A stretch of DNA of 64,000 bases from Laetmonice hystrix (lineage: Eukaryota), in NCBI GenBank assembly GCA_965235115.1, contig OZ249436.1:24430001-24494000 (forward strand). The letters are read 5' to 3'. The notes under the pieces were generated by a model. That model saw only the letters and a list, made by a program, of their open reading frames with translations, did not search any database and was not told where the DNA came from. The translations under genes and the position numbers were made by a program. Numbering within the stretch: position 1 is the first letter of the stretch; each line of letters begins with the position of its first letter. Positions 1-64,000 of this stretch are shown here, piece by piece.

Positions 1-885
1 ACAAATAACAGGATTCAGGGCTTCCTACCACGTTACAAGTCACAATAGATTGCTGCCTGTCGTAAAAATATACCAGACCATTTTAAAAAGTCACAGAACC
101 CCAATCCGGCCCTAATATGTCACTCCCAGTACCAATAGACGCTGGAAGCACCATCAACTGAAATTCAGGCCTAGAACCCACCTCTCTCTACCAATATCAT
201 GCACCTAGTCCGTATACGAGGTTGTAATTTCCTTTAATCAACGGGCTGCGCCGCAGCAACCCACTCTGGTCTTTGCAATCTTTTTCAATATGCGTTAACA
301 TTTGTGACCAGCTCAACGCGCCTTGTAAAATTTTTCAAAGTGCGTAAAAGTGTGTGTCCACCCCGACACGCTTTCCAAACCACTATACCCACCGAGCGAC
401 ATCCACTCAAATACAGGCTTCGACCGATCCTCACTGTGCCAATAATCCGCCACAAGGCAAATTCAGTCAATGCAAGCTGGAAAATCGAATGTCAAACCTA
501 ATGCTCCCCCCCCAGCACGTTAACTGAAAAAAATCAACTAGCTTGAAAACTAGAATATAGCTTTGTTTAGCTAACAATCTACTCTCCCAGCGCCATCAAC
601 TCGCATACAGGCGTAAAAGCAAACGCACTGCCCCATATAATGCTCCCAGCATAAAACGATGTTGCAATTAATTTAAAATTAACAAGATGCACTAGTAATC
701 CGATCCAAGCTTAATTACGTCATTGCTAGTTTCATAACCAAATCTCACAGAAAATACCCCACCCGGGCACATAACCTGAAAATATTCAACTTTTATCTCC
801 AATGTATCCCTGTGCACCTAGTAGCACCCAAGCGGGCCCAATTTTGACATTCCAACACAAATACCGCAAATACCCGCCTAATGGC
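1..885. repeat. Half-unit H1 (885 bp) of the dimeric unit; first copy shown, present in every unit
   Basis: Colinear with 886-1753: CAAGTCACA 37/909, TTAACATTTG 295/1141, TAGCTTGAAAACTAGAATATAGCTTTG 539/1436, TTAACAAGATGCACTA 679/1547, ATTTTGACATT 841/1709. The boundary phase is arbitrary (set by window start). Confidence 0.95.
506..513 (+). repeat. Length-variable poly-C tract (C7-C12), one per unit; first copy shown
   Basis: CTAATRCT(C)nAGCACG: C8 in U1/U2, C10 in U3, C11 in U9/U20/U21/U22/U30/U35, C7 in U32, C12 in U37. It explains most of the 1751-1755 bp unit-length variation. Confidence 0.9.
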
Positions 886-1753
886 ACAAAAAACTTTCTA
901 CCCCGTTGCAAGTCACATTAGCTTGCTGCTTGTCGTAAAAAATGGTGCAGACCATTTCTAAAGTCACAGTACCCCACTCCCGGCCTAATATTACGTTTCA
1001 GTATCCATATACGCTGCAAGCGGCAGGAACTCGAATACAGGCCTAAAAGTAACCCCAGTCTAGCAATATCATACTCTCATGCCATATACGAGCTTGTAAT
1101 TATCTTTAATTAATGGGCTCCGCAGCACCAACCCACTGCATTAACATTTGTTTAACAGCTTAACGCACCTTGTAAAAAAATTTTCAAGTGCGTAAAAATG
1201 CGTGTCCACCTCCACATACTTTAAAAATCACTATACCCACCCAGCGACATTCACTCTAATACACGCCTAAGAGGAACTTCACTGTCCCATTTGATTCTCC
1301 AGCACGTATAGGATGTTTCAAGTAACATTTATCCACGGTCTGGCCCAATAACGTGCAACAAGGCATAGTAAGTCAATGCGACCTCGCATGTCAAACCTAA
1401 CCCGCCCCCCAGCACATGAGCTGAAAATATTCAAATAGCTTGAAAACTAGAATATAGCTTTGCTTAATACCATTATACCATCAACTCGCATTACAGGCCT
1501 AATGCGAAGCTCCCAGCCTAAAACGAGTTTCCAATTAATTTAAAGTTAACAAGATGCACTAATAATCGATTCCAAGCCTAATTAGGCCATTGCTAGTTGG
1601 ATAACCAAATCTCATACAAAATACACCCTCCCGGCAGATGACCTGAGAATATTCAACTCTTATGTCCGATATATCCCTGTCCGCTTAGTAGCACCCAGCC
1701 GGGCCCCCATTTTGACATTGCAACACCAATACAGCAAGTGCCCAGCTAACAGC
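886..1753. repeat. Half-unit H2 (868 bp), diverged paralogue of H1; first copy shown
   Basis: Same anchors as H1. Identity by eye is roughly 70-85% depending on segment, with several 10-60 bp indels (anchor offsets 885, 872, 846, 906, 897, 868). Confidence 0.95.
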
Positions 1754-4700
1754 ACAAATAACAGGATTCAGGGCTTCCTACCACGTTACAAGTCACAATA
1801 GATTGCTGCCTGTCGTAAAAATATACCAGACCATTTTAAAAAGTCACAGAACCCCAATCCGGCCCTAATATGTCACTCCCAGTACCAATACACGCTGGAA
1901 GCACCATCAACTGAAATTCAGGCCTAGAACCCACCTCTCTCTACCAATATCATGCACCTAGTCCGTATACGAGGTTGTAATTTACTTTAATCAACGGGCT
2001 GCGCCGCAGCAACCCACTCTGGTCTTTGCAATCTTTTTCAATATGCGTTAACATTTGTAACCAGCTCAACGCGCCTTGTAAAATTTTTCAAAGTGCGTAA
2101 AAGTGTGTGTCCACCCCGACACGCTTTCCAAACCACTATACCCACCGAGCGACATCCACTCAAATACAGGCTTCGACCGATCCTCACTGTGCCAATAATC
2201 CGCCACAAGGCAAATTCAGTCAATGCAAGCTGGAAAATCGAATGTCAAACCTAATGCTCCCCCCCCAGCACGTTAACTGAAAATAATCAACTAGCTTGAA
2301 AACTAGAATATAGCTTTGTTAAGCTAACAATCTACTCTCCCAGCGCCATCAACTCGCATACAGGCGTAAAAGCAAACGCACTGCCCCATATAATGCTTCC
2401 AGCCTAAAACGATGTTGCAATTAATTTAAAATTAACAAGATGCACTAGTAATCCGATCCAAGCCTAATTACGTCATTGCTAGTTTCATAACCAAATCTCA
2501 CAGAAAATACCCCACCCGCGCACATAACCTGAAAATATTCAACTTTTATCTCCAATGTATCCCTGTGCACCTAGTAGCACCCAAGCGGGCCCAATTTTGA
2601 CATTCCAACACAAATACCGCAAATACCCGCCTAATGGCACAAAAAACTTTCTACCCCGTTGCAAGTCACATTAGCTTGCTGCTTGTCGTAAAAAATGGTG
2701 CAGACCATTTCTAAAGTCACAGTACCCCACTCCCGGCCTAATATTACGTTTCAGTATCCATATACGCTGCAAGCGGCAGGAACTCGAATACAGGCCTAAA
2801 AGTAACCCCAGTCTAGCAATATCATACTCTCATGCCATATACGAGCTTGTAATTATCTTTAATTAATGGGCTCCGCAGCACCAACCCACTGCATTAACAT
2901 TTGTTTAACAGCTTAACGCACCTTGTAAAAAATTTTCAAGTGCGTAAAAATGCGTGTCCACCTCCACATACTTTAAAAATCACTATACCCACCCAGCGAC
3001 ATTCACTCTAATACACGCCTAAGAGGAACTTCACTGTCCCATTTGATTCTCCAGCACGTATAGGATGTTTCAAGTAACATTTATCCACGGTCTGGCCCAA
3101 TAACGTGCAACAAGGCATAGTAAGTCAATGCGACCTCGCATGTCAAACCTAACCCGCCCCCCAGCACATGAGCTGGAGATATTCAAATAGCTTGAAAACT
3201 AGAATATAGCTTTGCTTAATACCATTATACCATCAACTCGCATTACAGGCCTAATGCGAAGCTCCCAGCCTAAAACGAGTTTCCAATTAATTTAAAGTTA
3301 ACAAGATGCACTAATAATCGATTCCAAGCCTAATTAGGCCATTGCTAGTTGGATAACCAAATCTCATACAAAATACACCCTCCCGGCAGATGACCTGAGA
3401 ATATTCAACTCTTATGTCCGATATATCCCTGTCCGCTTAGTAGCACCCAGCCGGGCCCCCATTTTGACATTGCAACACCAATACAGCAAGTGCCCAGCTA
3501 ACAGCACAAATAACAGGATTCAGGGCTTCCTACCACGTTACAAGTCACAATAGATTGCTGCCTGTCGTAAAAATATACCAGACCATTTTAAAAAGTCACA
3601 GAACCCCAATCCGGCCCTAATATGTCACTCCCAGTACCAATAGACGCTGGAAGCACCATCAACTGAAATTCAGGCCTAGAACCCACCTCTCTCTACCAAT
3701 ATCATGCACCTAGTCCGTATACGAGGTTGTAATTTACTTTAATCAACGGGCTGCGCCGCAGCAACCCACTCTGGTCTTTGCAATCTTTTTCAATATGCGT
3801 TAACATTTGTGACCAGCTCAACGCGCCTTGTAAAATTTTTCAAAGTGCGTAAAAGTGTGTGTCCACCCCGACACGCTTTCCAAACCACTATACCCACCGA
3901 GCGACATCCACTCAAATACAGGCTTCGACCGATCCTCACTGTGCCAATAATCCGCCACAAGGCAAATTCAGTCAATGCAAGCTGGAAAATCGAATGTCAA
4001 ACCTAATGCTCCCCCCCCCCAGCACGTTAACTGAAAATAATCAACTAGCTTGAAAACTAGAATATAGCTTTGTTAAGCTAACAATCTACTCTCCCAGCGC
4101 CATCAACTCGCATACAGGCGTAAAAGCAAACGCACTGCCCCATATAATGCTCCCAGCCTAAAACGATGTTGCAATTAATTTAAAATTAACAAGATGCACT
4201 AGTAATCCGATCCAAGCCTAATTACGTCATTGCTAGTTTCATAACCAAATCTCACAGAAAATACCCCACCCGCGCACATAACCTGAAAATATTCAACTTT
4301 TATCTCCAATGTATCCCTGTGCACCTAGTAGCACCCAAGCGGGCCCAATTTTGACATTCCAACACAAATACCGCAAATACCCGCCTAATGGCACAAAAAA
4401 CTTTCTACCCCGTTGCAAGTCACATTAGCTTGCTGCTTGTCGTAAAAAATGGTGCAGACCATTTCTAAAGTCACAGTACCCCACTCCCGGCCTAATATTA
4501 CGTTTCAGTATCCATATACGCTGCAAGCGGCAGGAACTCGAATACAGGCCTAAAAGTAACCCCAGTCTAGCAATATCATACTCTCATGCCATATACGAGC
4601 TTGTAATTATCTTTAATTAATGGGCTCCGCAGCACTAACCCACTGCATTAACATTTGTTTAACAGCTTAACGCACCTTGTAAAAAATTTTCAAGTGCGTA

Positions 4701-7700
4701 AAAATGCGTGTCCACCTCCACATACTTTAAACATCACTATACCCACCCAGCGACATTCACTCTAATACACGCCTAAGAGGAACTTCACTGTCCCATTTGA
4801 TTCTCCAGCACGTATAGGATGTTTCAAGTAACATTTATCCACGGTCTGGCCCAATAACGTGCAACAAGGCATAGTAAGTCAATGCGACCTCGCATGTCAA
4901 ACCTAACCCGCCCCCCAGCACATGAGCTGGAGACATTCAAATAGCTTGAAAACTAGAATATAGCTTTGCTTAATACCATTATACCATCAACTCGCATTAC
5001 AGGCCTAATGCGAAGCTCCCAGCCTAAAACGAGTTTCCAATTAATTTAAAGTTAACAAGATGCACTAATAATCGATTCCAAGCCTAATTAGGCCATTGCT
5101 AGTTGGATAACCAAATCTCATACAAAATACACCCTCCCGGCAGATGACCTGAGAATATTCAACTCTTATGTCCGATATATCCCTGTCCGCTTAGTAGCAC
5201 CCAGCCGGGCCCCCATTTTGACATTGCAACACCAATACAGCAAGTGCCCAGCTAACAGCACAAATAACAGGATTCAGGGCTTCCTACCACGTTACAAGTC
5301 ACAATAGATTGCTGCCTGTCGTAAAAATATACCAGACCATTTTAAAAAGTCACAGAACCCCAATCCGGCCCTAATATGTCACTCCCAGTACCAATAGACG
5401 CTGGAAGCACCATCAACTGAAATTCAGGCCTAGAACCCACCTCTCTCTACCAATATCATGCACCTAGTCCGTATACGAGGTTGTAATTTACTTTAATCAA
5501 CGGGCTGCGCCGCAGCAACCCACTCTGGTCTTTGCAATCTTTTTCAATATGCGTTAACATTTGTGACCAGCTCAACGCGCCTTGTAAAATTTTTCAAAGT
5601 GCGTAAAAGTGTGTGTCCACCCCGACACGCTTTCCAAACCACTATACCCACCGAGCGACATCCACTCAAATACAGGCTTCGACCGATCCTCACTGTGCCA
5701 ATAATCCGCCACAAGGCAAATTCAGTCAATGCAAGCTGGAAAATCGAATGTCAAACCTAATGCTCCCCCCCCCAGCACGTTAACTGAAAAAAATCAACTA
5801 GCTTGAAAACTAGAATATAGCTTTGTTTAGCTAACAATCTACTCTCCCAGCGCCATCAACTCGCATACAGGCGTAAAAGCAAACGCACTGCCCCATATAA
5901 TGCTCCCAGCCTAAGACGATGTTGCAATTAATTTAAGATTAACAAGATGCACTAGTAATCCGATCCAAGCCTAATTACGTCATTGCTAGTTTCATAACCA
6001 AATCTCACAGAAAATACCCCACCCGCGCACATAACCTGAAAATATTTAACTTTTATCTCCAATGTATCCCTGTGCACCTAGTAGCACACAAGCGGGCCCA
6101 ATTTTGACATCCCAACACAAATACCGCAAATACCCGCCTAATGGCACAAAAAACTTTCTACCCCGTTGCAAGTCACATTAGCGTGCTGCTTGTCGTAAAA
6201 AATGGTGCAGACCATTTCTAAAGTCACAGTACCCCACTCCCGGCCTAATATTACGTTTCAGTATCCATATACGCTGCAAGCGGCAGGAACTCGAATACAG
6301 GCCTAAAAGTAACCTCAGTCTAGCAATATCATACTCCCATGCCATATACGAGCTTGTAATTATCTTTAATTAATGGGCTCCGCAGCACCAACCCACTGCA
6401 TTAACATTTGTTTAACAGCTTAACGCACCTTGTAAAATTTTTTCAAGTGCGTAAAAATGCGTGTCCACCTCCACATACTTTAAAAATCACTATACCCACC
6501 CAGCGACATCCACTCTAATACACGCCTAAAAGGAACTTCACTGTCCCATTTGATTCTCCAGCACGTATAGGATGTTTCAAGTAACATTCATCCACGGTCT
6601 GGCCCAATAACGTGCAGCAAGGCATAGTAAGTCAATGCGAGCTCGCATGTCAAACCTAACCCGCCCCCAAGCACATGAGCTGAAAATATTCAAATAGCTT
6701 GAAAACTAGAATATAGCTTTGCTTAATACCATTATACCATCAACTCGCATTACAGGCCTAATGCGAAGCTCCCAGCCTAAAACGAGTTTCCAATTAATTT
6801 AAAGTTAACAAGATGCACTAATAATCGATTCCAAGCCTAATTAGGCCATTGCTAGTTGGATAACCAAATCTCATACAAAATACACCCTCCCGGCAGATGA
6901 CCTGAGAATATTCAACTCTTATGTCCGATATATCCCTGTCCGCTTAGTAGCACCCAGCCGGGCCCCCATTTTGACATTGCAACACCAATACAGCAAGTGC
7001 CCAGCTAACAGCACAAATAACAGGATTCAGGGCTTCCTACCACGTTACAAGTCACAATAGATTGCTGCCTGTCGTAAAAATATACCAGACCATTTTAAAA
7101 AGTCACAGAACCCCAATCCGGCCCTAATATGTCACTCCCAGTACCAATAGACGCTGGAAGCACCATCAACTGAAATTCAGGCCTAGAACCCACCTCTCTC
7201 TACCAATATCATGCACCTAGTCCGTATACGAGGTTGTAATTTACTTTAATCAACGGGCTGCGCCGCAGCAACCCACTCTGGTCTTTGCAATCTTTTTCAA
7301 TATGCGTTAACATTTGTGACCAGCTCAACGCGCCTTGTAAAATTTTTCAAAGTGCGTAAAAGTGTGTGTCCACCCCGACACGCTTTCCAAACCACTATAC
7401 CCACCGAGCGACATCCACTCAAATACAGGCTTCGACCGATCCTCACTGTGCCAATAATCCGCCACAAGGCAAATTCAGTCAATGCAAGCTGGAAAATCGA
7501 ATGTCAAACCTAATGCTCCCCCCCCAGCACGTTAACTGAAAAAAATCAACTAGCTTGAAAACTAGAATATAGCTTTGTTTAGCTAACAATCTACTCTCCC
7601 AGCGCCATCAACTCGCATACAGGCGTAAAAGCAAACGCACTGCCCCATATAATGCTCCCAGCCTAAGACGATGTTGCAATTAATTTAAGATTAACAAGAT

Positions 7701-10700
7701 GCACTAGTAATCCGATCCAAGCCTAATTACGTCATTGCTAGTTTCATAACCAAATCTCACAGAAAATACCCCACCCGCGCACATAACCTGAAAATATTCA
7801 ACTTTTATCTCCAATGTATCCCTGTGCACCTAGTAGCACCCAAGCGGGCCCAATTTTGACATTCCAACACAAATACCGCAAATACCCGCCTAATGGCACA
7901 AAAAAACTTTCTACCCCGTTGCAAGTCACATTAGCTTGCTGCTTGTCGTAAAAAATGGTGCAGACCATTTCTAAAGTCACAGTACCCCACTCCCGGCCTA
8001 ATATTACGTTTCAGTATCCATATACGCTGCAAGCGGCAAGAACTCGAATACAGGCCTAAAAGTAACCCCAGTCTAGCAATATCATACTCTCATGCCATAT
8101 ACGAGCTTGTAATTATCTTTAATTAATGGGCTCCGCAGCACCAACCCACTGCATTAACATTTGTTTAACAGCTTAACGCACCTTGTAAAAAATTTTCAAG
8201 TGCGTAAAAATGCGTGTCCACCTCCACATACTTTAAACATCACTATACCCACCCAGCGACATTCACTCTAATACACGCCTAAGAGGAACTTCACTGTCCC
8301 ATTTGATTCTCCAGCACGTATAGGATGTTTCAAGTAACATTTATCCACGGTCTGGCCCAATAACGTGCAACAAGGCATAGTAAGTCAATGCGACCTCGCA
8401 TGTCAAACCTAACCCGCCCCCCAGCACATGAGCTGGAGATATTCAAATAGCTTGAAAACTAGAATATAGCTTTGCTTAATACCATTATACCATCAACTCG
8501 CATTACAGGCCTAATGCGAAGCTCCCAGCCTAAAACGAGTTTCCAATTAATTTAAAGTTAACAAGATGCACTAATAATCGATTCCAAGCCTAATTAGGCC
8601 ATTGCTAGTTGGATAACCAAATCTCATACAAAATACACCCTCCCGGCAGATGACCTGAGAATATTCAACTCTTATGTCCGATATATCCCTGTCCGCTTAG
8701 TAGCACCCAGCCGGGCCCCCATTTTGACATTGCAACACCAATACAGCAAGTGCCCAGCTAACAGCACAAATAACAGGATTCAGGGCTTCCTACCACGTTA
8801 CAAGTCACAATAGATTGCTGCCTGTCGTAAAAATATACCAGACCATTTTAAAAAGTCACAGAACCCCAATCCGGCCCTAATATGTCACTCCCAGTACCAA
8901 TAGACGCTGGAAGCACCATCAACTGAAATTCAGGCCTAGAACCCACCTCTCTCTACCAATATCATGCACCTAGTCCGTATACGAGGTTGTAATTTACTTT
9001 AATCAACGGGCTGCGCCGCAGCAACCCACTCTGGTCTTTGCAATCTTTTTCAATATGCGTTAACATTTGTGACCAGCTCAACGCGCCTTGTAAAATTTTT
9101 CAAAGTGCGTAAAAGTGTGTGTCCACCCCGACACGCTTTCCAAACCACTATACCCACCGAGCGACATCCACTCAAATACAGGCTTCGACCGATCCTCACT
9201 GTGCCAATAATCCGCCACAAGGCAAATTCAGTCAATGCAAGCTGGAAAATCGAATGTCAAACCTAATGCTCCCCCCCCAGCACGTTAACTGAAAAAAATC
9301 AACTAGCTTGAAAACTAGAATATAGCTTTGTTTAGCTAACAATCTACTCTCCCAGCGCCATCAACTCGCATACAGGCGTAAAAGCAAACGCACTGCCCCA
9401 TATAATGCTCCCAGCCTAAGACGATGTTGCAATTAATTTAAGATTAACAAGATGCACTAGTAATCCGATCCAAGCCTAATTACGTCATTGCTAGTTTCAT
9501 AACCAAATCTCACAGAAAATACCCCACCCGCGCACATAACCTGAAAATATTTAACTTTTATCTCCAATGTATCCCTGTGCACCTAGTAGCACACAAGCGG
9601 GCCCAATTTTGACATCCCAACACAAATACCGCAAATACCCGCCTAATGGCACAAAAAACTTTCTACCCCGTTGCAAGTCACATTAGCGTGCTGCTTGTCG
9701 TAAAAAATGGTGCAGACCATTTCTAAAGTCACAGTACCCCACTCCCGGCCTAATATTACGTTTCAGTATCCATATACGCTGCAAGCGGCAGGAACTCGAA
9801 TACAGGCCTAAAAGTAACCTCAGTCTAGCAATATCATACTCCCATGCCATATACGAGCTTGTAATTATCTTTAATTAATGGGCTCCGCAGCACCAACCCA
9901 CTGCATTAACATTTGTTTAACAGCTTAACGCACCTTGTAAAATTTTTTCAAGTGCGTAAAAATGCGTGTCCACCTCCACATACTTTAAAAATCACTATAC
10001 CCACCCAGCGACATCCACTCTAATACACGCCTAAAAGGAACTTCACTGTCCCATTTGATTCTCCAGCACGTATAGGATGTTTCAAGTAACATTCATCCAC
10101 GGTCTTGCCCAATAACGTGCAGCAAGGCATAGTAAGTCAATGCGAGCTCGCATGTCAAACCTAACCCGCCCCCAAGCACATGAGCTGAAAATATTCAAAT
10201 AGCTTGAAAACTAGAATATAGCTTTGCTTAATACCATTATACCATCAACTCGCATTACAGGCCTAATGCGAAGCTCCCAGCCTAAAACGAGTTTCCAATT
10301 AATTTAAAGTTAACAAGATGCACTAATAATCGATTCCAAGCCTAATTAGGCCATTGCTAGTTGGATAACCAAATCTCATACAAAATACACCCTCCCGGCA
10401 GATGACCTGAGAATATTCAACTCTTATGTCCGATATATCCCTGTCCGCTTAGTAGCACCCAGCCGGGCCCCCATTTTGACATTGCAACACCAATACAGCA
10501 AGTGCCCAGCTAACAGCACAAATAACAGGATTCAGGGCTTCCTACCACGTTACAAGTCACAATAGATTGCTGCCTGTCGTAAAAATATACCAGACCATTT
10601 TAAAAAGTCACAGAACCCCAATCCGGCCCTAATATGTCACTCCCAGTACCAATAGACGCTGGAAGCACCATCAACTGAAATTCAGGCCTAGAACCCACCT

Positions 10701-13700
10701 CTCTCTACCAATATCATGCACCTAGTCCGTATACGAGGTTGTAATTTACTTTAATCAACGGGCTGCGCCGCAGCAACCCACTCTGGTCTTTGCAATCTTT
10801 TTCAATATGCGTTAACATTTGTGACCAGCTCAACGCGCCTTGTAAAATTTTTCAAAGTGCGTAAAAGTGTGTGTCCACCCCGACACGCTTTCCAAACCAC
10901 TATACCCACCGAGCGACATCCACTCAAATACAGGCTTCGACCGATCCTCACTGTGCCAATAATCCGCCACAAGGCAAATTCAGTCAATGCAAGCTGGAAA
11001 ACCGAATGTCAAACCTAATGCTCCCCCCCCAGCACGTTAACTGAAAAAAATCAACTAGCTTGAAAACTAGAATATAGCTTTGTTTAGCTAACAATCTACT
11101 CTCCCAGCGCCATCAACTCGCATACAGGCGTAAAAGCAAACGCACTGCCCCATATAATGCTCCCAGCATAAAACGATGTTGCAATTAATTTAAAATTAAC
11201 AAGATGCACTAGTAATCCGATCCAAGCTTAATTACGTCATTGCTAGTTTCATAACCAAATCTCACAGAAAATACCCCACCCGGGCACATAACCTGAAAAT
11301 ATTCAACTTTTATCTCCAATGTATCCCTGTGCACCTAGTAGCACCCAAGCGGGCCCAATTTTGACATTCCAACACAAATACCGCAAATACCCGCCTAATG
11401 GCACAAAAAACTTTCTACCCCGTTGCAAGTCACATTAGCTTGCTGCTTGTCGTAAAAAATGGTGCAGACCATTTCTAAAGTCACAGTACCCCACTCCCGG
11501 CCTAATATTACGTTTCAGTATCCATATACGCTGCAAGCGGCAGGAACTCGAATACAGGCCTAAAAGTAACCCCAGTCTAGCAATATCATACTCTCATGCC
11601 ATATACGAGCTTGTAATTATCTTTAATTAATGGGCTCCGCAGCACCAACCCACTGCATTAACATTTGTTTAACAGCTTAACGCACCTTGTAAAAAAATTT
11701 TCAAGTGCGTAAAAATGCGTGTCCACCTCCACATACTTTAAAAATCACTATACCCACCCAGCGACATTCACTCTAATACACGCCTAAGAGGAACTTCACT
11801 GTCCCATTTGATTCTCCAGCACGTATAGGATGTTTCAAGTAACATTTATCCACGGTCTGGCCCAATAACGTGCAACAAGGCATAGTAAGTCAATGCGAGC
11901 TCGCATGTCAAACCTAACCCGCCCCCCAGCACATGAGCTGAAAATATTCAAATAGCTTGAAAACTAGAATATAGCTTTGCTTAATACCATTATACCATCA
12001 ACTCGCATTACAGGCCTAATGCGAAGCTCCCAGCCTAAAACGAGTTTCCAATTAATTTAAAGTTAACAAGATGCACTAATAATCGATTCCAAGCCTAATT
12101 AGGCCATTGCTAGTTGGATAACCAAATCTCATACAAAATACACCCTCCCGGCAGATGACCTGAGAATATTCAACTCTTATGTCCGATATATCCCTGTCCG
12201 CTTAGTAGCACCCAGCCGGGCCCCCATTTTGACATTGCAACACCAATACAGCAAGTGCCCAGCTAACAGCACAAATAACAGGATTCAGGGCTTCCTACCA
12301 CGTTACAAGTCACAATAGATTGCTGCCTGTCGTAAAAATATACCAGACCATTTTAAAAAGTCACAGAACCCCAATCCGGCCCTAATATGTCACTCCCAGT
12401 ACCAATACACGCTGGAAGCACCATCAACTGAAATTCAGGCCTAGAACCCACCTCTCTCTACCAATATCATGCACCTAGTCCGTATACGAGGTTGTAATTT
12501 ACTTTAATCAACGGGCTGCGCCGCAGCAACCCACTCTGGTCTTTGCAATCTTTTTCAATATGCGTTAACATTTGTAACCAGCTCAACGCGCCTTGTAAAA
12601 TTTTTCAAAGTGCGTAAAAGTGTGTGTCCACCCCGACACGCTTTCCAAACCACTATACCCACCGAGCGACATCCACTCAAATACAGGCTTCGACCGATCC
12701 TCACTGTGCCAATAATCCGCCACAAGGCAAATTCAGTCAATGCAAGCTGGAAAATCGAATGTCAAACCTAATGCTCCCCCCCCCAGCACGTTAACTGAAA
12801 ATAATCAACTAGCTTGAAAACTAGAATATAGCTTTGTTAAGCTAACAATCTACTCTCCCAGCGCCATCAACTCGCATACAGGCGTAAAAGCAAACGCACT
12901 GCCCCATATAATGCTTCCAGCCTAAAACGATGTTGCAATTAATTTAAAATTAACAAGATGCACTAGTAATCCGATCCAAGCCTAATTACGTCATTGCTAG
13001 TTTCATAACCAAATCTCACAGAAAATACCCCACCCGCGCACATAACCTGAAAATATTCAACTTTTATCTCCAATGTATCCCTGTGCACCTAGTAGCACCC
13101 AAGCGGGCCCAATTTTGACATTCCAACACAAATACCGCAAATACCCGCCTAATGGCACAAAAAACTTTCTACCCCGTTGCAAGTCACATTAGCTTGCTGC
13201 TTGTCGTAAAAAATGGTGCAGACCATTTCTAAAGTCACAGTACCCCACTCCCGGCCTAATATTACGTTTCAGTATCCATATACGCTGCAAGCGGCAGGAA
13301 CTCGAATACAGGCCTAAAAGTAACCCCAGTCTAGCAATATCATACTCTCATGCCATATACGAGCTTGTAATTATCTTTAATTAATGGGCTCCGCAGCACC
13401 AACCCACTGCATTAACATTTGTTTAACAGCTTAACGCACCTTGTAAAAAATTTTCAAGTGCGTAAAAATGCGTGTCCACCTCCACATACTTTAAAAATCA
13501 CTATACCCACCCAGCGACATTCACTCTAATACACGCCTAAGAGGAACTTCACTGTCCCATTTGATTCTCCAGCACGTATAGGATGTTTCAAGTAACATTT
13601 ATCCACGGTCTGGCCCAATAACGTGCAACAAGGCATAGTAAGTCAATGCGACCTCGCATGTCAAACCTAACCCGCCCCCCAGCACATGAGCTGGAGATAT

Positions 13701-50847: not shown

Positions 50848-53800
50848 ACAAATAACAGGATTCAGGGCTTCCTACCACGTTACAAGTCACAATAGATTGC
50901 TGCCTGTCGTAAAAATATACCAGACCATTTTAAAAAGTCACAGAACCCCAATCCGGCCCTAATATGTCACTCCCAGTACCAATAGACGCTGGAAGCACCA
51001 TCAACTGAAATTCAGGCCTAGAACCCACCTCTCTCTACCAATATCATGCACCTAGTCCGTATACGAGGTTGTAATTTACTTTAATCAACGGGCTGCGCCG
51101 CAGCAACCCACTCTGGTCTTTGCAATCTTTTTCAATATGCGTTAACATTTGTGACCAGCTCAACGCGCCTTGTAAAATTTTTCAAAGTGCGTAAAAGTGT
51201 GTGTCCACCCCGACACGCTTTCCAAACCACTATACCCACCGAGCGACATCCACTCAAATACAGGCTTCGACCGATCCTCACTGTGCCAATAATCCGCCAC
51301 AAGGCAAATTCAGTCAATGCAAGCTGGAAAATCGAATGTCAAACCTAATGCTCCCCCCCCCCCAGCACGTTAACTGAAAAAAATCAACTAGCTTGAAAAC
51401 TAGAATATAGCTTTGTTTAGCTAACAATCTACTCTCCCAGCGCCATCAACTCGCATACAGGCGTAAAAGCAAACGCACTGCCCCATATAATGCTTCCAGC
51501 CTAAAACGATGTTGCAATTAATTTAAAATTAACAAGATGCACTAGTAATCCGATCCAAGCCTAATTACGTCATTGCTAGTTTCATAACCAAATCTCACAG
51601 AAAATACCCCACCCGCGCACATAACCTGAAAATATTCAACTTTTATCTCCAATGTATCCCTGTGCACCTAGTAGCACCCAAGCGGGCCCAATTTTGACAT
51701 TCCAACACAAATACCGCAAATACCCGCCTAATGGCACAAAAAACTTTCTACCCCGTTGCAAGTCACATTAGCTTGCTGCTTGTCGTAAAAAATGGTGCAG
51801 ACCATTTCTAAAGTCACAGTACCCCACTCCCGGCCTAATATTACGTTTCAGTATCCATATACGCTGCAAGCGGCAGGAACTCGAATACAGGCCTAAAAGT
51901 AACCCCAGTCTAGCAATATCATACTCTCATGCCATATACGAGCTTGTAATTATCTTTAATTAATGGGCTCCGCAGCACCAACCCACTGCATTAACATTTG
52001 TTTAACAGCTTAACGCACCTTGTAAAAAATTTTCAAGTGCGTAAAAATGCGTGTCCACCTCCACATACTTTAAAAATCACTATACCCACCCAGCGACATT
52101 CACTCTAATACACGCCTAAGAGGAACTTCACTGTCCCATTTGATTCTCCAGCACGTATAGGATGTTTCAAGTAACATTTATCCACGGTCTGGCCCAATAA
52201 CGTGCAACAAGGCATAGTAAGTCAATGCGACCTCGCATGTCAAACCTAACCCGCCCCCCAGCACATGAGCTGGAGATATTCAAATAGCTTGAAAACTAGA
52301 ATATAGCTTTGCTTAATACCATTATACCATCAACTCGCATTACAGGCCTAATGCGAAGCTCCCAGCCTAAAACGAGTTTCCAATTAATTTAAAGTTAACA
52401 AGATGCACTAATAATCGATTCCAAGCCTAATTAGGCCATTGCTAGTTGGATAACCAAATCTCATACAAAATACACCCTCCCGGCAGATGACCTGAGAATA
52501 TTCAACTCTTATGTCCGATATATCCCTGTCCGCTTAGTAGCACCCAGCCGGGCCCCCATTTTGACATTGCAACACCAATACAGCAAGTGCCCAGCTAACA
52601 GCACAAATAACAGGATTCAGGGCTTCCTACCACGTTACAAGTCACAATAGATTGCTGCCTGTCGTAAAAATATACCAGACCATTTTAAAAAGTCACAGAA
52701 CCCCAATCCGGCCCTAATATGTCACTCCCAGTACCAATAGACGCTGGAAGCACCATCAACTGAAATTCAGGCCTAGAACCCACCTCTCTCTACCAATATC
52801 ATGCACCTAGTCCGTATACGAGGTTGTAATTTACTTTAATCAACGGGCTGCGCCGCAGCAACCCACTCTGGTCTTTGCAATCTTTTTCAATATGCGTTAA
52901 CATTTGTGACCAGCTCAACGCGCCTTGTAAAATTTTTCAAAGTGCGTAAAAGTGTGTGTCCACCCCGACACGCTTTCCAAACCACTATACCCACCGAGCG
53001 ACATCCACTCAAATACAGGCTTCGACCGATCCTCACTGTGCCAATAATCCGCCACAAGGCAAATTCAGTCAATGCAAGCTGGAAAATCGAATGTCAAACC
53101 TAATGCTCCCCCCCCCAGCACGTTAACTGAAAATAATCAACTAGCTTGAAAACTAGAATATAGCTTTGTTAAGCTAACAATCTACTCTCCCAGCGCCATC
53201 AACTCGCATACAGGCGTAAAAGCAAACGCACTGCCCCATATAATGCTCCCAGCCTAAAACGATGTTGCAATTAATTTAAAATTAACAAGATGCACTAGTA
53301 ATCCGATCCAAGCCTAATTACGTCATTGCTAGTTTCATAACCAAATCTCACAGAAAATACCCCACCCGCGCACATAACCTGAAAATATTTAACTTTTATC
53401 TCCAATGTATCCCTGTGCACCTAGTAGCACACAAGCGGGCCCAATTTTGACATCCCAACACAAATACCGCAAATACCCGCCTAATGGCACAAAAAACTTT
53501 CTACCCCGTTGCAAGTCACATTAGCGTGCTGCTTGTCGTAAAAAATGGTGCAGACCATTTCTAAAGTCACAGTACCCCACTCCCGGCCTAATATTACGTT
53601 TCAGTATCCATATACGCTGCAAGCGGCAGGAACTCGAATACAGGCCTAAAAGTAACCTCAGTCTAGCAATATCATACTCCCATGCCATATACGAGCTTGT
53701 AATTATCTTTAATTAATGGGCTCCGCAGCACCAACCCACTGCATTAACATTTGTTTAACAGCTTAACGCACCTTGTAAAATTTTTTCAAGTGCGTAAAAA

Positions 53801-56800: not shown

Positions 56801-59800
56801 AGTAATCCGATCCAAGCTTAATTACGTCATTGCTAGTTTCATAACCAAATCTCACAGAAAATACCCCACCCGGGCACATAACCTGAAAATATTCAACTTT
56901 TATCTCCAATGTATCCCTGTGCACCTAGTAGCACCCAAGCGGGCCCAATTTTGACATCCCAACACAAATACCGCAAATACCCGCCTAATGGCACAAAAAA
57001 CTTTCTACCCCGTTGCAAGTCACATTAGCGTGCTGCTTGTCGTAAAAAATGGTGCAGACCATTTCTAAAGTCACAGTACCCCACTCCCGGCCTAATATTA
57101 CGTTTCAGTATCCATATACGCTGCAAGCGGCAGGAACTCGAATACAGGCCTAAAAGTAACCTCAGTCTAGCAATATCATACTCCCATGCCATATACGAGC
57201 TTGTAATTATCTTTAATTAATGGGCTCCGCAGCACCAACCCACTGCATTAACATTTGTTTAACAGCTTAACACACCTTGTAAAATTTTTTCAAGTGCGTA
57301 AAAATGCGTGTCCACCTCCACATACTTTAAAAATCACTATACCCACCCAGCGACATCCACTCTAATACACGCCTAAAAGGAACTTCACTGTCCCATTTGA
57401 TTCTCCAGCACGTATAGGATGTTTCAAGTAACATTCATCCACGGTCTGGCCCAATAACGTGCAACAAGGCATAGTAAGTCAATGCGAGCTCGCATGTCAA
57501 ACCTAACCCGCCCCCAAGCACATGAGCTGAAAATATTCAAATAGCTTGAAAACTAGAATATAGCTTTGCTTAATACCATTATACCATCAACTCGCATTAC
57601 AGGCCTAATGCGAAGCTCCCAGCCTAAAACGAGTTTCCAATTAATTTAAAGTTAACAAGATGCACTAATAATCGATTCCAAGCCTAATTAGGCCATTGCT
57701 AGTTGGATAACCAAATCTCATACAAAATACACCCTCCCGGCAGATGACCTGAGAATATTCAACTCTTATGTCCGATATATCCCTGTCCGCTTAGTAGCAC
57801 CCAGCCGGGCCCCCATTTTGACATTGCAACACCAATACAGCAAGTGCCCAGCTAACAGCACAAATAACAGGATTCAGGGCTTCCTACCACGTTACAAGTC
57901 ACAATAGATTGCTGCCTGTCGTAAAAATATACCAGACCATTTTAAAAAGTCACAGAACCCCAATCCGGCCCTAATATGTCACTCCCAGTACCAATAGACG
58001 CTGGAAGCACCATCAACTGAAATTCAGGCCTAGAACCCACCTCTCTCTACCAATATCATGCACCTAGTCCGTATACGAGGTTGTAATTTCCTTTAATCAA
58101 CGGGCTGCGCCGCAGCAACCCACTCTGGTCTTTGCAATCTTTTTCAATATGCGTTAACATTTGTGACCAGCTCAACGCGCCTTGTAAAATTTTTCAAAGT
58201 GCGTAAAAGTGTGTGTCCACCCCGACACGCTTTCCAAACCACTATACCCACCGAGCGACATCCACTCAAATACAGGCTTCGACCGATCCTCACTGTGCCA
58301 ATAATCCGCCACAAGGCAAATTCAGTCAATGCAAGCTGGAAAATCGAATGTCAAACCTAATGCTCCCCCCCCAGCACGTTAACTGAAAAAAATCAACTAG
58401 CTTGAAAACTAGAATATAGCTTTGTTTAGCTAACAATCTACTCTCCCAGCGCCATCAACTCGCATACAGGCGTAAAAGCAAACGCACTGCCCCATATAAT
58501 GCTCCCGGCATAAAACGATGTTGCAATTAATTTAAAATTAACAAGATGCACTAGTAATCCGATCCAAGCTTAATTACGTCATTGCTAGTTTCATAACCAA
58601 ATCTCACAGAAAATACCCCACCCGGGCACATAACCTGAAAATATTCAACTTTTATCTCCAATGTATCCCTGTGCACCTAGTAGCACCCAAGCGGGCCCAA
58701 TTTTGACATTCCAACACAAATACCGCAAATACCCGCCTAATGGCACAAAAAACTTTCTACCCCGTTGCAAGTCACATTAGCTTGCTGCTTGTCGTAAAAA
58801 ATGGTGCAGACCATTTCTAAAGTCACAGTACCCCACTCCCGGCCTAATATTACGTTTCAGTATCCATATACGCTGCAAGCGGCAGGAACTCGAATACAGG
58901 CCTAAAAGTAACCCCAGTCTAGCAATATCATACTCTCATGCCATATACGAGCTTGTAATTATCTTTAATTAATGGGCTCCGCAGCACCAACCCACTGCAT
59001 TAACATTTGTTTAACAGCTTAACGCACCTTGTAAAAAAATTTTCAAGTGCGTAAAAATGCGTGTCCACCTCCACATACTTTAAAAATCACTATACCCACC
59101 CAGCGACATTCACTCTAATACACGCCTAAGAGGAACTTCACTGTCCCATTTGATTCTCCAGCACGTATAGGATGTTTCAAGTAACATTTATCCACGGTCT
59201 GGCCCAATAACGTGCAACAAGGCATAGTAAGTCAATGCGACCTCGCATGTCAAACCTAACCCGCCCCCCAGCACATGAGCTGAAAATATTCAAATAGCTT
59301 GAAAACTAGAATATAGCTTTGCTTAATACCATTATACCATCAACTCGCATTACAGGCCTAATGCGAAGCTCCCAGCCTAAAACGAGTTTCCAATTAATTT
59401 AAAGTTAACAAGATGCACTAATAATCGATTCCAAGCCTAATTAGGCCATTGCTAGTTGGATAACCAAATCTCATACAAAATACACCCTCCCGGCAGATGA
59501 CCTGAGAATATTCAACTCTTATGTCCGATATATCCCTGTCCGCTTAGTAGCACCCAGCCGGGCCCCCATTTTGACATTGCAACACCAATACAGCAAGTGC
59601 CCAGCTAACAGCACAAATAACAGGATTCAGGGCTTCCTACCACGTTACAAGTCACAATAGATTGCTGCCTGTCGTAAAAATATACCAGACCATTTTAAAA
59701 AGTCACAGAACCCCAATCCGGCCCTAATATGTCACTCCCAGTACCAATACACGCTGGAAGCACCATCAACTGAAATTCAGGCCTAGAACCCACCTCTCTC

Positions 59801-62800
59801 TACCAATATCATGCACCTAGTCCGTATACGAGGTTGTAATTTACTTTAATCAACGGGCTGCGCCGCAGCAACCCACTCTGGTCTTTGCAATCTTTTTCAA
59901 TATGCGTTAACATTTGTAACCAGCTCAACGCGCCTTGTAAAATTTTTCAAAGTGCGTAAAAGTGTGTGTCCACCCCGACACGCTTTCCAAACCACTATAC
60001 CCACCGAGCGACATCCACTCAAATACAGGCTTCGACCGATCCTCACTGTGCCAATAATCCGCCACAAGGCAAATTCAGTCAATGCAAGCTGGAAAATCGA
60101 ATGTCAAACCTAATGCTCCCCCCCCCCCAGCACGTTAACTGAAAATAATCAACTAGCTTGAAAACTAGAATATAGCTTTGTTAAGCTAACAATCTACTCT
60201 CCCAGCGCCATCAACTCGCATACAGGCGTAAAAGCAAACGCACTGCCCCATATAATGCTTCCAGCCTAAAACGATGTTGCAATTAATTTAAAATTAACAA
60301 GATGCACTAGTAATCCGATCCAAGCCTAATTACGTCATTGCTAGTTTCATAACCAAATCTCACAGAAAATACCCCACCCGCGCACATAACCTGAAAATAT
60401 TCAACTTTTATCTCCAATGTATCCCTGTGCACCTAGTAGCACCCAAGCGGGCCCAATTTTGACATTCCAACACAAATACCGCAAATACCCGCCTAATGGC
60501 ACAAAAAACTTTCTACCCCGTTGCAAGTCACATTAGCTTGCTGCTTGTCGTAAAAAATGGTGCAGACCATTTCTAAAGTCACAGTACCCCACTCCCGGCC
60601 TAATATTACGTTTCAGTATCCATATACGCTGCAAGCGGCAGGAACTCGAATACAGGCCTAAAAGTAACCCCAGTCTAGCAATATCATACTCTCATGCCAT
60701 ATACGAGCTTGTAATTATCTTTAATTAATGGGCTCCGCAGCACCAACCCACTGCATTAACATTTGTTTAACAGCTTAACGCACCTTGTAAAAAATTTTCA
60801 AGTGCGTAAAAATGCGTGTCCACCTCCACATACTTTAAAAATCACTATACCCACCCAGCGACATTCACTCTAATACACGCCTAAGAGGAACTTCACTGTC
60901 CCATTTGATTCTCCAGCACGTATAGGATGTTTCAAGTAACATTTATCCACGGTCTGGCCCAATAACGTGCAACAAGGCATAGTAAGTCAATGCGACCTCG
61001 CATGTCAAACCTAACCCGCCCCCCAGCACATGAGCTGGAGATATTCAAATAGCTTGAAAACTAGAATATAGCTTTGCTTAATACCATTATACCATCAACT
61101 CGCATTACAGGCCTAATGCGAAGCTCCCAGCCTAAAACGAGTTTCCAATTAATTTAAAGTTAACAAGATGCACTAATAATCGATTCCAAGCCTAATTAGG
61201 CCATTGCTAGTTGGATAACCAAATCTCATACAAAATACACCCTCCCGGCAGATGACCTGAGAATATTCAACTCTTATGTCCGATATATCCCTGTCCGCTT
61301 AGTAGCACCCAGCCGGGCCCCCATTTTGACATTGCAACACCAATACAGCAAGTGCCCAGCTAACAGCACAAATAACAGGATTCAGGGCTTCCTACCACGT
61401 TACAAGTCACAATAGATTGCTGCCTGTCGTAAAAATATACCAGACCATTTTAAAAAGTCACAGAACCCCAATCCGGCCCTAATATGTCACTCCCAGTACC
61501 AATAGACGCTGGAAGCACCATCAACTGAAATTCAGGCCTAGAACCCACCTCTCTCTACCAATATCATGCACCTAGTCCGTATACGAGGTTGTAATTTCCT
61601 TTAATCAACGGGCTGCGCCGCAGCAACCCACTCTGGTCTTTGCAATCTTTTTCAATATGCGTTAACATTTGTGACCAGCTCAACGCGCCTTGTAAAATTT
61701 TTCAAAGTGCGTAAAAGTGTGTGTCCACCCCGACACGCTTTCCAAACCACTATACCCACCGAGCGACATCCACTCAAATACAGGCTTCGACCGATCCTCA
61801 CTGTGCCAATAATCCGCCACAAGGCAAATTCAGTCAATGCAAGCTGGAAAATCGAATGTCAAACCTAATGCTCCCCCCCCAGCACGTTAACTGAAAAAAA
61901 TCAACTAGCTTGAAAACTAGAATATAGCTTTGTTTAGCTAACAATCTACTCTCCCAGCGCCATCAACTCGCATACAGGCGTAAAAGCAAACGCACTGCCC
62001 CATATAATGCTCCCGGCATAAAACGATGTTGCAATTAATTTAAAATTAACAAGATGCACTAGTAATCCGATCCAAGCTTAATTACGTCATTGCTAGTTTC
62101 ATAACCAAATCTCACAGAAAATACCCCACCCGGGCACATAACCTGAAAATATTCAACTTTTATCTCCAATGTATCCCTGTGCACCTAGTAGCACCCAAGC
62201 GGGCCCAATTTTGACATTCCAACACAAATACCGCAAATACCCGCCTAATGGCACAAAAAACTTTCTACCCCGTTGCAAGTCACATTAGCTTGCTGCTTGT
62301 CGTAAAAAATGGTGCAGACCATTTCTAAAGTCACAGTACCCCACTCCCGGCCTAATATTACGTTTCAGTATCCATATACGCTGCAAGCGGCAGGAACTCG
62401 AATACAGGCCTAAAAGTAACCCCAGTCTAGCAATATCATACTCTCATGCCATATACGAGCTTGTAATTATCTTTAATTAATGGGCTCCGCAGCACCAACC
62501 CACTGCATTAACATTTGTTTAACAGCTTAACGCACCTTGTAAAAAAATTTTCAAGTGCGTAAAAATGCGTGTCCACCTCCACATACTTTAAAAATCACTA
62601 TACCCACCCAGCGACATTCACTCTAATACACGCCTAAGAGGAACTTCACTGTCCCATTTGATTCTCCAGCACGTATAGGATGTTTCAAGTAACATTTATC
62701 CACGGTCTGGCCCAATAACGTGCAACAAGGCATAGTAAGTCAATGCGACCTCGCATGTCAAACCTAACCCGCCCCCCAGCACATGAGCTGAAAATATTCA

Positions 62801-64000
62801 AATAGCTTGAAAACTAGAATATAGCTTTGCTTAATACCATTATACCATCAACTCGCATTACAGGCCTAATGCGAAGCTCCCAGCCTAAAACGAGTTTCCA
62901 ATTAATTTAAAGTTAACAAGATGCACTAATAATCGATTCCAAGCCTAATTAGGCCATTGCTAGTTGGATAACCAAATCTCATACAAAATACACCCTCCCG
63001 GCAGATGACCTGAGAATATTCAACTCTTATGTCCGATATATCCCTGTCCGCTTAGTAGCACCCAGCCGGGCCCCCATTTTGACATTGCAACACCAATACA
63101 GCAAGTGCCCAGCTAACAGCACAAATAACAGGATTCAGGGCTTCCTACCACGTTACAAGTCACAATAGATTGCTGCCTGTCGTAAAAATATACCAGACCA
63201 TTTTAAAAAGTCACAGAACCCCAATCCGGCCCTAATATGTCACTCCCAGTACCAATACACGCTGGAAGCACCATCAACTGAAATTCAGGCCTAGAACCCA
63301 CCTCTCTCTACCAATATCATGCACCTAGTCCGTATACGAGGTTGTAATTTACTTTAATCAACGGGCTGCGCCGCAGCAACCCACTCTGGTCTTTGCAATC
63401 TTTTTCAATATGCGTTAACATTTGTAACCAGCTCAACGCGCCTTGTAAAATTTTTCAAAGTGCGTAAAAGTGTGTGTCCACCCCGACACGCTTTCCAAAC
63501 CACTATACCCACCGAGCGACATCCACTCAAATACAGGCTTCGACCGATCCTCACTGTGCCAATAATCCGCCACAAGGCAAATTCAGTCAATGCAAGCTGG
63601 AAAATCGAATGTCAAACCTAATGCTCCCCCCCCCCCCAGCACGTTAACTGAAAATAATCAACTAGCTTGAAAACTAGAATATAGCTTTGTTAAGCTAACA
63701 ATCTACTCTCCCAGCGCCATCAACTCGCATACAGGCGTAAAAGCAAACGCACTGCCCCATATAATGCTTCCAGCCTAAAACGATGTTGCAATTAATTTAA
63801 AATTAACAAGATGCACTAGTAATCCGATCCAAGCCTAATTACGTCATTGCTAGTTTCATAACCAAATCTCACAGAAAATACCCCACCCGCGCACATAACC
63901 TGAAAATATTCAACTTTTATCTCCAATGTATCCCTGTGCACCTAGTAGCACCCAAGCGGGCCCAATTTTGACATTCCAACACAAATACCGCAAATACCCG

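Follow-up and report, generated by a model that had tools for sequence, protein, structure and literature searches.

The stretch of DNA analysed here, a 64,000-bp window, is occupied in its entirety by a satellite array that continues beyond both of its ends. We located 37 unit starts, all in one orientation, and, as a long head-to-tail array of similar non-coding units, it is a tandem satellite. Its base composition is 43% G+C, with a C-rich plus strand (GC skew -0.31). Alignment of the units gave 37 shared substitution columns, five shared indel columns and 28 singleton columns, and the mean difference between pairs of units was 14.7 substitutions (0.84%). The private substitutions (n=27) comprised 19 transitions and eight transversions, the pattern expected of mutations. 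Telomeric arrays were absent, neither TTAGGG nor tandem CCCTAA being present. Tandem Repeats Finder, whose longest period is 500 bp, returned nothing on positions 1-8000, and exact-match scans of JGI metagenome contigs with 27 and 20 bases gave no match. In sequencing run X1 (4,466 contigs) the summed contig word depth over one unit was 0.09-2.1 million, a value that is not a copy number.

The 1,753-bp unit is a dimer of ~876-bp halves, parts of which are 84-89% alike. In unit 10, our reference, each half comprised three sub-repeats of ~200-250 bp, 63-71% alike, plus ~200 bp unmatched to them. A clean reading of the unit as 8 x 219 bp was ruled out, since there are only six sub-repeats, each half having a further ~200 bp. 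The sub-repeat level (~220 bp) is supported by local alignments and by ungapped self-match peaks at lags 222 and 253 (z of 8.4 and 7.3, against a null maximum of 6.7); gapped global identity between sub-repeats was no better than in shuffles (null mean 65%). A basic unit of ~50-60 bp is doubtful, its z of 5.9 falling under the same null maximum. The internal periods are ~876, ~220-250 and, doubtfully, ~50 bp, and the 171-bp monomer of primate alpha satellite is not matched. The CENP-B box had no occurrence with at most one mismatch, compared with 6.6 expected in shuffles. The unit has no inverted repeats longer than 18 bp and the frames scanned gave no Pfam match, results still compatible with descent from a transposon such as an LTR element or a Helentron. 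A recognisable RNA or protein gene per unit was not found: Rfam gave no match at the gathering score (12 kb searched) or at E up to 5 (2.2 kb searched), the array sequence yielded no tRNA genes and five of five frames scanned were without a Pfam match, searches that families outside Rfam and Pfam would escape. The longest stop-free frame has 87 aa.

A first-pass annotation had proposed that about 30 recurrent SNPs sort the units into six linked haplotypes with strongly non-random adjacencies. The sorting was borne out by the 37 shared substitutions across the 36 full units, which define six types, A-F, with a divergence of 0.14% within and 1.0% between types. The string of nearest types reads ABCDCDABCCDEFDEFFABCCBCDEFABCBDEFABA. 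It contains 25 ordered neighbours out of 35 (A>B 5, B>C 5, C>D 4, D>E 4, E>F 4 and F>A 3), so that each of the proposed transitions does recur three to five times. The comparison with shuffled unit orders that the annotation had suggested came out in its favour: even when the best of all 120 cycles was taken for each shuffle, the mean was 11.6 and the maximum 19, and none of 20,000 reached 25. A test of order made without type labels agreed (0.52 vs 0.12; 0 of 2,000), and each half of the window independently chose ABCDEF, the cross-score on the other half being 12 of 17 (0 of 20,000). Scored as a path over a circular ABCDEF template, the array had a cost of 42.5, that is, 11 jumps and 15 mismatches in 36 x 37 cells, while the next-best of the 120 cyclic orders tried cost 70 and 40 shuffles scored in the same way cost at least 72.5. 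The order A>B>C>D>E>F>A is real, and in the general sense of a higher-order repeat (HOR), distinct types recurring in a set order, the array is one.

The number of types was less clear-cut. The six centroids were picked by hand, and k-medoids returned the same count; automatic k-medoids with K=6 gave 23-25 ordered neighbours at all seven cut points tried, and four, five or seven types gave fewer at each of them. The haplotypes are not equally distinct. B and C differ at only four sites, against 9-23 for the other pairs of types, and average-linkage clustering fused them, leaving five groups (silhouette 0.745), the sixth group being the chimeric unit 16. The four-gamete test among the six centroids failed for 88 of 561 pairs of sites, which implies that the types are themselves mosaics.

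The super-repeat period of ~10.5 kb, which had also been claimed, did not hold. The same type recurred at lag 6 in five of 30 pairs, which is the chance level (p=0.49), and no lag from 1 to 18 was notable once the 18 tests were taken into account (the lowest p, 0.048, was at lag 17). Successive A units are spaced by 10.5, 19.3, 15.8, 12.3 and 3.5 kb, and the cycles from one A-B to the next span 6, 11, 9 and 7 units. An intact run of six types occurs only as three overlapping frames within one stretch, units 22-29. The array lacks the fixed long-range period of a regimented, alpha-satellite-like HOR. Its structure is that of an order on a template, without the periodicity of a 10.5-kb super-repeat. 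We read the window as traversing a 10.5-kb template about five times, with about 11 whole-unit jumps and chimeric units at the junctions (Table 1).

Table 1. Coordinates of the array, its reference unit, and the passes, junctions and duplications along the window.
Feature	Positions	Strand	Remarks
Satellite array, head-to-tail	1..64000	.	36 full units of 1,751-1,755 bp and 880 bp of the 37th
First pass, A-B-C-D and left part of E (units 1-5)	1..8039	.	
Junction E>C within unit 5	8039..8175	.	Two units back
Junction D -> F/A	10122..10655	.	+2 units, phase restored
Units 8-10 (B, C, C)	12271..17532	.	One-unit tandem duplication; private SNP column 1537 in units 8 and 9 only
Unit 10, type C, reference unit	15779..17532	+	Two ~876-bp halves, ~70% alike
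Unit 14, chimera A/C/D	22793..24545	.	C>D junction at 23470-23580, same interval as that of unit 31
Junction F>E within unit 16	27375..27460	.	One-unit duplication
Units 20-23 (C, C, D/B, C)	33310..40328	.	One-unit and two-unit duplications
D>B junction within the region of units 20-23	37125-37353	.	
Longest jump-free stretch (B-right C D E F A B C D-left)	37353..51418	.	About 8 units
Junctions D>B (unit 30) and C>D (unit 31)	51418..53390	.	D>B at 51418-51495; C>D at 53280-53390
Units 34-37 (A, B, A, B-part)	57860..64000	.	Youngest two-unit duplication

The order is interrupted every 3.3 units on average, and these departures coincide with chimeric units or local duplications, as the annotation had noted. 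Breakpoints lie inside units and the jumps leave unit length unchanged; junctions fall at many positions within the unit, with no hot spot apparent by eye. Unit 7 may alternatively be read as E on the left and A on the right, its junction then lying a few hundred bases further on. Only the longest jump-free stretch holds a complete six-unit pass, for example CDEFAB at 38575-49093. For three of the backward jumps (units 8/9, 21/23 and 34/36) a private SNP is present in both copies, which makes these recent tandem duplications: column 1638 is private to units 21 and 23, and units 34 and 36, which share column 652, are identical. Over the 870 bp compared, the only difference between units 35 and 37 is a single base in a C run. 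Passes in register differed by 4-12 substitutions per 5.3-7.0 kb (0.08-0.17%) in four of four comparisons, and the single off-register control gave 78 per 7.0 kb (1.1%); copies in register resemble each other far more closely than the units within one copy do. This result, together with the dimeric unit, upholds the earlier idea of a young HOR built on a compound 1.75-kb unit.

We propose, with a probability of roughly 0.78, that a six-unit block was amplified and is now eroding by unequal exchange, in a non-coding satellite with a layered history of duplication. In the earliest step, a ~220-bp sub-repeat would have been triplicated and joined by ~200 bp of other sequence to give ~876 bp, whose doubling to 1,753 bp may have founded a very abundant family. 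Neighbours in a local sub-array would then have drifted about 1% apart and swapped segments, producing six mosaic types, a step that the four-gamete result in part documents. Tandem copying of the six-unit block (10.5 kb) many times in a short period would explain why in-register copies differ by only 0.1-0.2%. The last step is the one visible in the assembly: since then, one or two whole units at a time have been gained or lost about 11 times in 36 units, through homologous exchange or repair out of register, its breakpoints inside units leaving chimeras and a constant unit length. Unequal crossing-over, break-induced replication and long-tract conversion would each fit, and one window cannot separate them. 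Under this explanation the order is a trace of common ancestry and has no function in itself.

Simulations, which are our own toy models with autocorrelated samples, bear on the tempo of this history. A six-unit burst followed by 0.3 small events per unit reproduced the observed order in 140 of 300 samples, although the fit was loose (lag-6 identity 0.27 and 19.5 singletons, vs 0.17 and 27 observed). Steps of one or two units alone gave the observed degree of order in none of 600 samples, and it was reached in 0 of 15 settings of 20 samples; within the toy model, turnover by such steps alone is rejected. That only about five passes are visible, one of them uninterrupted, counts against our proposal. 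A history without a discrete burst, in which steady duplication and deletion with multi-unit steps let one six-unit lineage become dominant by chance, as in a heterogeneous, Arabidopsis-like array, is unlikely but has points in its favour. It accommodates the missing fixed period; with mean steps of 6-12 units it matched the observed mean divergence and, like the array, left neighbours no more similar than other units (lag-1 ratio 1.0-1.07, vs 0.99 observed); and published simulations, as given in the available text of 10.1101/2025.06.02.657473, obtain homogenised blocks from local indels alone. Nevertheless, the steady models averaged 16-17 ordered neighbours and doubled the residual around six medoids (0.17 vs 0.079 observed). 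With broad step sizes, the observed order (25 or more ordered neighbours and three or more passes) arose in 4-7 of 600 samples, that is, about 1%, or 3% with a built-in six-unit step. Since steady turnover sometimes reaches this order, and the window was picked from many, a burst followed by decay is favoured by these models but not proven; steady turnover differs from it in tempo only. The array had been described as either forming or decaying, and it is decay after block amplification that the simulations favour.

We consider it quite improbable that reads of a more regular array, or of two haplotypes, were mis-stitched during assembly, creating some or all of the jumps or the order itself. 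In favour of such an error, similarity among the units is 99%, a single C-run base is all that separates units 34-35 from units 36-37, as would be the case in a false duplication, and the C-type marker at column 1231 is absent from the contigs of run X1, which accounts for the bulk of the sequence and may underlie the assembly (0 of 225,903 depth). However, other duplicated pairs (units 21/23, 4/6 and 20/21) differ by one to three substitutions, private changes are rich in transitions, junctions are scattered over the unit, the depths of six window-array alleles in run X1 track how often each is present in the window (448-524 depth per copy), and the available text on replicated Arabidopsis assemblies reports only 15 centromeric errors (10.1101/2025.06.02.657473). 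An artefact might add a jump or two, but hardly an order common to both halves of the window. That the order or the unit is functional, as it would be in a tandem array of genes or RNAs that maintains six variants or in a 10.5-kb chromatin module under selection, is scarcely credible: unit length is tightly kept (1,751-1,755 bp) and the unit halves are similar in parts, but homologous exchange alone would conserve length, the parts searched held no gene match or long reading frame, and the order is so often broken.

An alpha-satellite 'superHOR' has reportedly been described. The implication that HORs on long units are rare does not stand, as kilobase-unit cases have been published (PMC2588610; PMC10475015). 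The human MSTA/THE1 'LTR arrays' of chromosomes 13, 18 and 21 are described as HORs of six compound units of ~3.5 kb, in which loss of one or three whole units was attributed to unequal crossing-over (Warburton et al. 2008, PMC2588610). They resemble our array in having six kilobase-size compound units and whole-unit loss. In the available description, their units consist of LTR-retrotransposon fragments, have an insertion and deletions as markers and are visible in dot plots at 90% identity, whereas ours are non-coding satellite dimers, 99% alike and separable by SNPs only, with denser jumps. The three-unit NBPF/Olduvai HORs likewise have units of ~1.6 kb and canonical and variant copies, but consist, as presented in PMC10475015, of protein-coding exons in genes, with three unit types at a 5% threshold, and we claim no homology with them.

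Alpha-satellite HORs and the nested repeats of HSat2/3 share with the window a diverged multimer as the amplified unit, and alpha-satellite HOR-haplotypes are likewise typed by shared SNPs, with recent local duplications and larger repeats on top (Altemose et al., 10.1101/2021.07.12.452052). In the window, the counterpart of the HOR or nested unit is the 1,753-bp unit, whose SNP-defined haplotypes are A-F. Unlike alpha satellite, the window has neither the 171-bp monomer nor a CENP-B box, and the available account of Altemose et al. describes layered HOR-haplotypes and macro-repeats, not a short six-member cycle. According to the accessible text of a survey of 263 satellite families in 165 species (10.64898/2026.09.17.752431), HORs are prevalent in plants, chordates and invertebrates, and unit length is 201 bp to 5 kb in 103 of the 263 families. 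Ordered but aperiodic, the window matches its description of heterogeneous HORs, but its rule (blocks of at least four units, at least 96% alike) is trivially satisfied by units 99% alike and leaves order at the SNP level unresolved. The word 'annelid' does not occur in its main text. In Arabidopsis CEN178 mutation-accumulation lines, the available text reports whole-unit indels and chimeric junction units (10.1101/2025.06.02.657473). As in the window, these indels are of kilobase size, with insertions exceeding deletions, chimeras at breakpoints and conversion between near units. With a 178-bp unit, the same kilobase event is 1-31 units there and 1-2 units here, and whole-unit exchange was measured in Arabidopsis and is inferred in the window.

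More tentatively, and on balance doubtfully, the 1,753-bp family might be a centromeric satellite of a marine invertebrate. The six-type sub-array would then be its youngest expanding layer, in a four-tier nest (220 > 876 > 1,753 > 10,500 bp) whose whole-unit exchanges can be located and ordered by SNPs, and the -2/+2 pair of jumps in units 5-7 would mark an out-of-register conversion tract several kilobases long. If so, the 63 kb, with about 11 jumps and 27 private substitutions, would allow unit exchange to be measured directly as a ratio to point mutation, for a lineage with poorly described centromeric DNA. The available part of a preprint describes putative clitellate centromeres without a predominant satellite, and a centromeric family in an annelid would fill a small gap.

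Biologically the array is ordinary: higher-order patterns that build up and erode are to be expected in satellite DNA. The value of the array is that of a clean test case. HOR callers that use a 96% threshold or a fixed period would overlook an order this strong. Given units of 1.75 kb and 34 type-defining SNPs, each junction can be confined to an interval, often of about 100 bp, and private SNPs place the junctions in order, so that the array is readable as a log of recent exchanges.

In the assembly, the entire window is a single tandem array with a G+C content of 43% throughout and a main k-mer spacing of 1,752-1,755 bp. It represents a six-unit higher-order arrangement, now eroding, of a nested 1.75-kb satellite unit; the structure is real and well resolved but ordinary. 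An invariant 20-mer marks 37 unit starts, so that the window comprises 36 complete units, each 1,751-1,755 bp long, and 880 bp of a 37th; as no 20-mers are common to the window and its reverse complement, all copies share the same orientation. Among the columns of the unit alignment, 37 carry a shared substitution, 5 a shared indel and 28 a singleton; the mean difference between units is 14.7 substitutions. Six type centroids (A to F) were chosen by hand from the alignment table and every unit was given its nearest centroid, yielding the string ABCDCDABCCDEFDEFFABCCBCDEFABCBDEFABA. In this string 25 of the 35 neighbours obey A>B>C>D>E>F>A (5, 5, 4, 4, 4 and 3 for the successive steps), while shuffled unit orders, each scored with the best of 120 cycles, averaged 11.6 and peaked at 19, none of 20,000 reaching 25.

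The ordered adjacency proposed by the first-pass annotation was thus borne out. Automatic k-medoids likewise gave 25 ordered neighbours, and in a label-free test the successors of near-identical units were also near-identical (0.52 vs 0.12). Either half of the window selected ABCDEF, scoring 12/17 on the opposite half with centroids derived from the whole window. The claim of six linked haplotypes stood in part: K=6 gave the highest ordered-neighbour count at all seven cut points (23-25), but B and C differ at 4 sites only and average-linkage clustering produced five clean groups. The ~10.5-kb super-repeat of the same annotation failed as a period. Units six apart were of the same type in 5/30 pairs (p=0.49), A-to-A spacing was 10.5, 19.3, 15.8, 12.3 and 3.5 kb, and all six types run intact in a single stretch; therefore the 10.5-kb unit is a template, not a period. 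The array qualifies as a higher-order repeat in the general sense, fails the fixed-period test of a regular one, and is not of the alpha satellite kind.

A circular ABCDEF template path through the 36 x 37 matrix required 11 jumps (departures from the circular order) and 15 mismatches, at a cost of 42.5; the runner-up order cost 70 and 40 shuffles at least 72.5. Seven jumps were backward and four forward, each by one or two units, so the window runs through the template some five times, at around seven units a pass. As had been proposed, these departures coincide in the assembly with chimeric units or local duplications. Several junctions were bracketed to ~80-230 bp inside units, at widely varied positions within the unit; four were bracketed no tighter than 0.5-1.1 kb, and the script's placing of the A>C step of unit 14 is unreliable. 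Three backward jumps are independently identified as tandem duplications by a SNP that is present in both copies and in no other unit (units 8/9, 21/23 and 34/36). Units 14 and 31 have a common C>D junction interval and may come from one event, so that the independent events may be fewer than 11. In units 5-7 a -2 and a +2 jump cancel, keeping the six-unit phase (A at 1 and 10,518); this pair resembles an out-of-register conversion tract several kilobases long, or else a double exchange.

In-register stretches differed by 11, 12, 12 and 4 substitutions over 7.0, 7.0, 7.0 and 5.3 kb, compared with 78 over 7.0 kb in the one off-register control; divergence was 0.14% within and 1.0% between types. 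Among centroids, 88 of 561 site pairs failed the four-gamete test, indicating a mosaic relationship among the types. The 27 private substitutions comprised 19 transitions, 3 of them at CpG, and 8 transversions; with a CpG observed/expected ratio of 0.83 in the window, there is little sign of methylation-driven decay. Strand asymmetry was strong (GC skew -0.31, AT skew +0.14).

Toy simulations combined point mutation with whole-unit duplication and deletion at random in-unit breakpoints; their parameters were set by us and samples along one chain are correlated, which applies to all the following counts. When a six-unit burst was followed by 0.2-0.4 small events per unit, the observed order was recovered in 95-149 of 300 samples and periodicity was mostly gone (lag-6 identity 0.23-0.38 vs 0.17 observed). 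The window itself shows 0.3 jumps per unit (11 per 36). The order was reached in 20/600 samples with a six-unit step built into the mix, and in 4-7/600 with broad step sizes. Steps of one or two units made neighbours alike (lag-1 ratio 0.38 vs 0.99 observed) and gave the order in 0/600. We infer that a six-unit block was amplified in a burst, after which small whole-unit duplications and deletions, arising through a presumed recombination pathway and probably neutral, would have eroded the six-unit order.

The 1,753-bp unit is itself a dimer in the assembly. Its ~876-bp halves are ~70% alike, and each holds three ~200-250-bp sub-repeats, 63-71% alike (local alignments, E down to 1e-17), and ~200 bp without match to them. 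Together with the unit order, this gives a nesting of 220 > 876 > 1,753 > 10,500 bp, in which divergence falls with each step up from the tier beneath. Ungapped autocorrelation peaked at 222 and 253 bp above the null maximum; an ancestral unit of ~50-60 bp is possible, its 51-bp peak lying below that maximum. The longest stop-free frame of the array is 87 aa. A Pfam scan of five of the listed frames gave no match, Rfam gave none, either in 12 kb at the gathering score or in 2.2 kb with E values allowed up to 5, and a tRNA search found none.

Features located within the window or the repeat unit
Feature	Window positions	Unit positions	Observation
Unit 10 (type C)	15779-17532		Reference unit
Units 5-7	7013-12270		Cancelling jumps 2-3 kb apart
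CCTAA words		Offsets 111-1578 of unit 10	12 per unit; CCAGC-like words ~59 bp apart in places
Adjoining 50-bp copies	273-372		Two, 70% alike, within each unit
Imperfect 30-bp palindrome	316-345		Within each unit
C run	60118-60128 (example)	Columns 505-515	Length varies by three bases, tracks type only loosely; likeliest site of sequencing error
D and F block		Columns 855-1415	Alleles shared by D and F, including columns 1256, 1276 and 1387
X1 depth peaks	16428-16486, 17372-17430		Best conserved between halves; depth 1.3-2.1 million, elsewhere 0.1-0.25 million

The array behaves like several known systems. These include human arrays built from six compound units of ~3.5 kb, in which unequal crossing-over has deleted one or three units (Warburton et al., PMC2588610), NBPF triplets as higher-order repeats with ~1.6-kb units (PMC10475015), and human centromeres with SNP-defined HOR-haplotypes, macro-repeats, recent local duplications and nested tandem repeats (10.1101/2021.07.12.452052). 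A survey of 263 satellite families, 103 with units of 201 bp to 5 kb, describes higher-order repeats, regimented or heterogeneous, as prevalent, invertebrates included (10.64898/2026.09.17.752431), and Arabidopsis mutation-accumulation lines display exactly the event types inferred here (10.1101/2025.06.02.657473). Small patterns are described as ubiquitous in maize satellites (PMC13011684). In the literature searched, mostly open papers judged by title and the start of the abstract, together with the survey's main text, we found neither the 1,753-bp family nor, for an annelid satellite, a six-member cycle at SNP level. That the array is the youngest layer of a putative centromeric satellite, recording exchange rates, seems to us unlikely.

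Of the 11 public runs listed, 8 contain all or part of the stretch; they come from organism A (one sample), organism B and marine metagenomes. JGI contigs, scanned twice, gave no match. Four runs were aligned to unit 10, as contigs of which none reaches across the whole unit. Run X1 may represent the source sample of the assembly; more than half of its 4,466 aligned contigs were below 95% alike, which places the unit in a large family that has relatives. Allele analysis in X1 covered 8 type-defining sites among the 40 listed of 112 difference rows; column 1335, where relatives inflate the depth, and columns 1184-1185 were set aside. The array-typical allele made up 3-7% of family depth at six sites, scaling with window count (448-524 depth per copy), a high correlation that means little as these sites form only three groups; 231C (728 per copy) and 1231C (0) were discordant. 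As a loose estimate from depth, which does not equal copy number, the six-type sub-array accounts for roughly one tenth of the family in X1. At columns 1256, 1276 and 1387 the family-wide majority in X1 is the D/F state, the rarer one being found in A, B and C; part of the between-type difference is therefore older family variation. The A marker 231C occurred on one contig (depth 6.6) of the independent metagenome X3, and the D/F dinucleotide at 1184-1185 on one contig of a further run, X6 (depth 4, flagged as possible error). At the X1 depth peaks many contigs were 85-95% alike, and low-depth joints skip 869-877 bp. Together these features suggest that related satellite subfamilies of larger size exist, perhaps built on a unit of ~876 bp.
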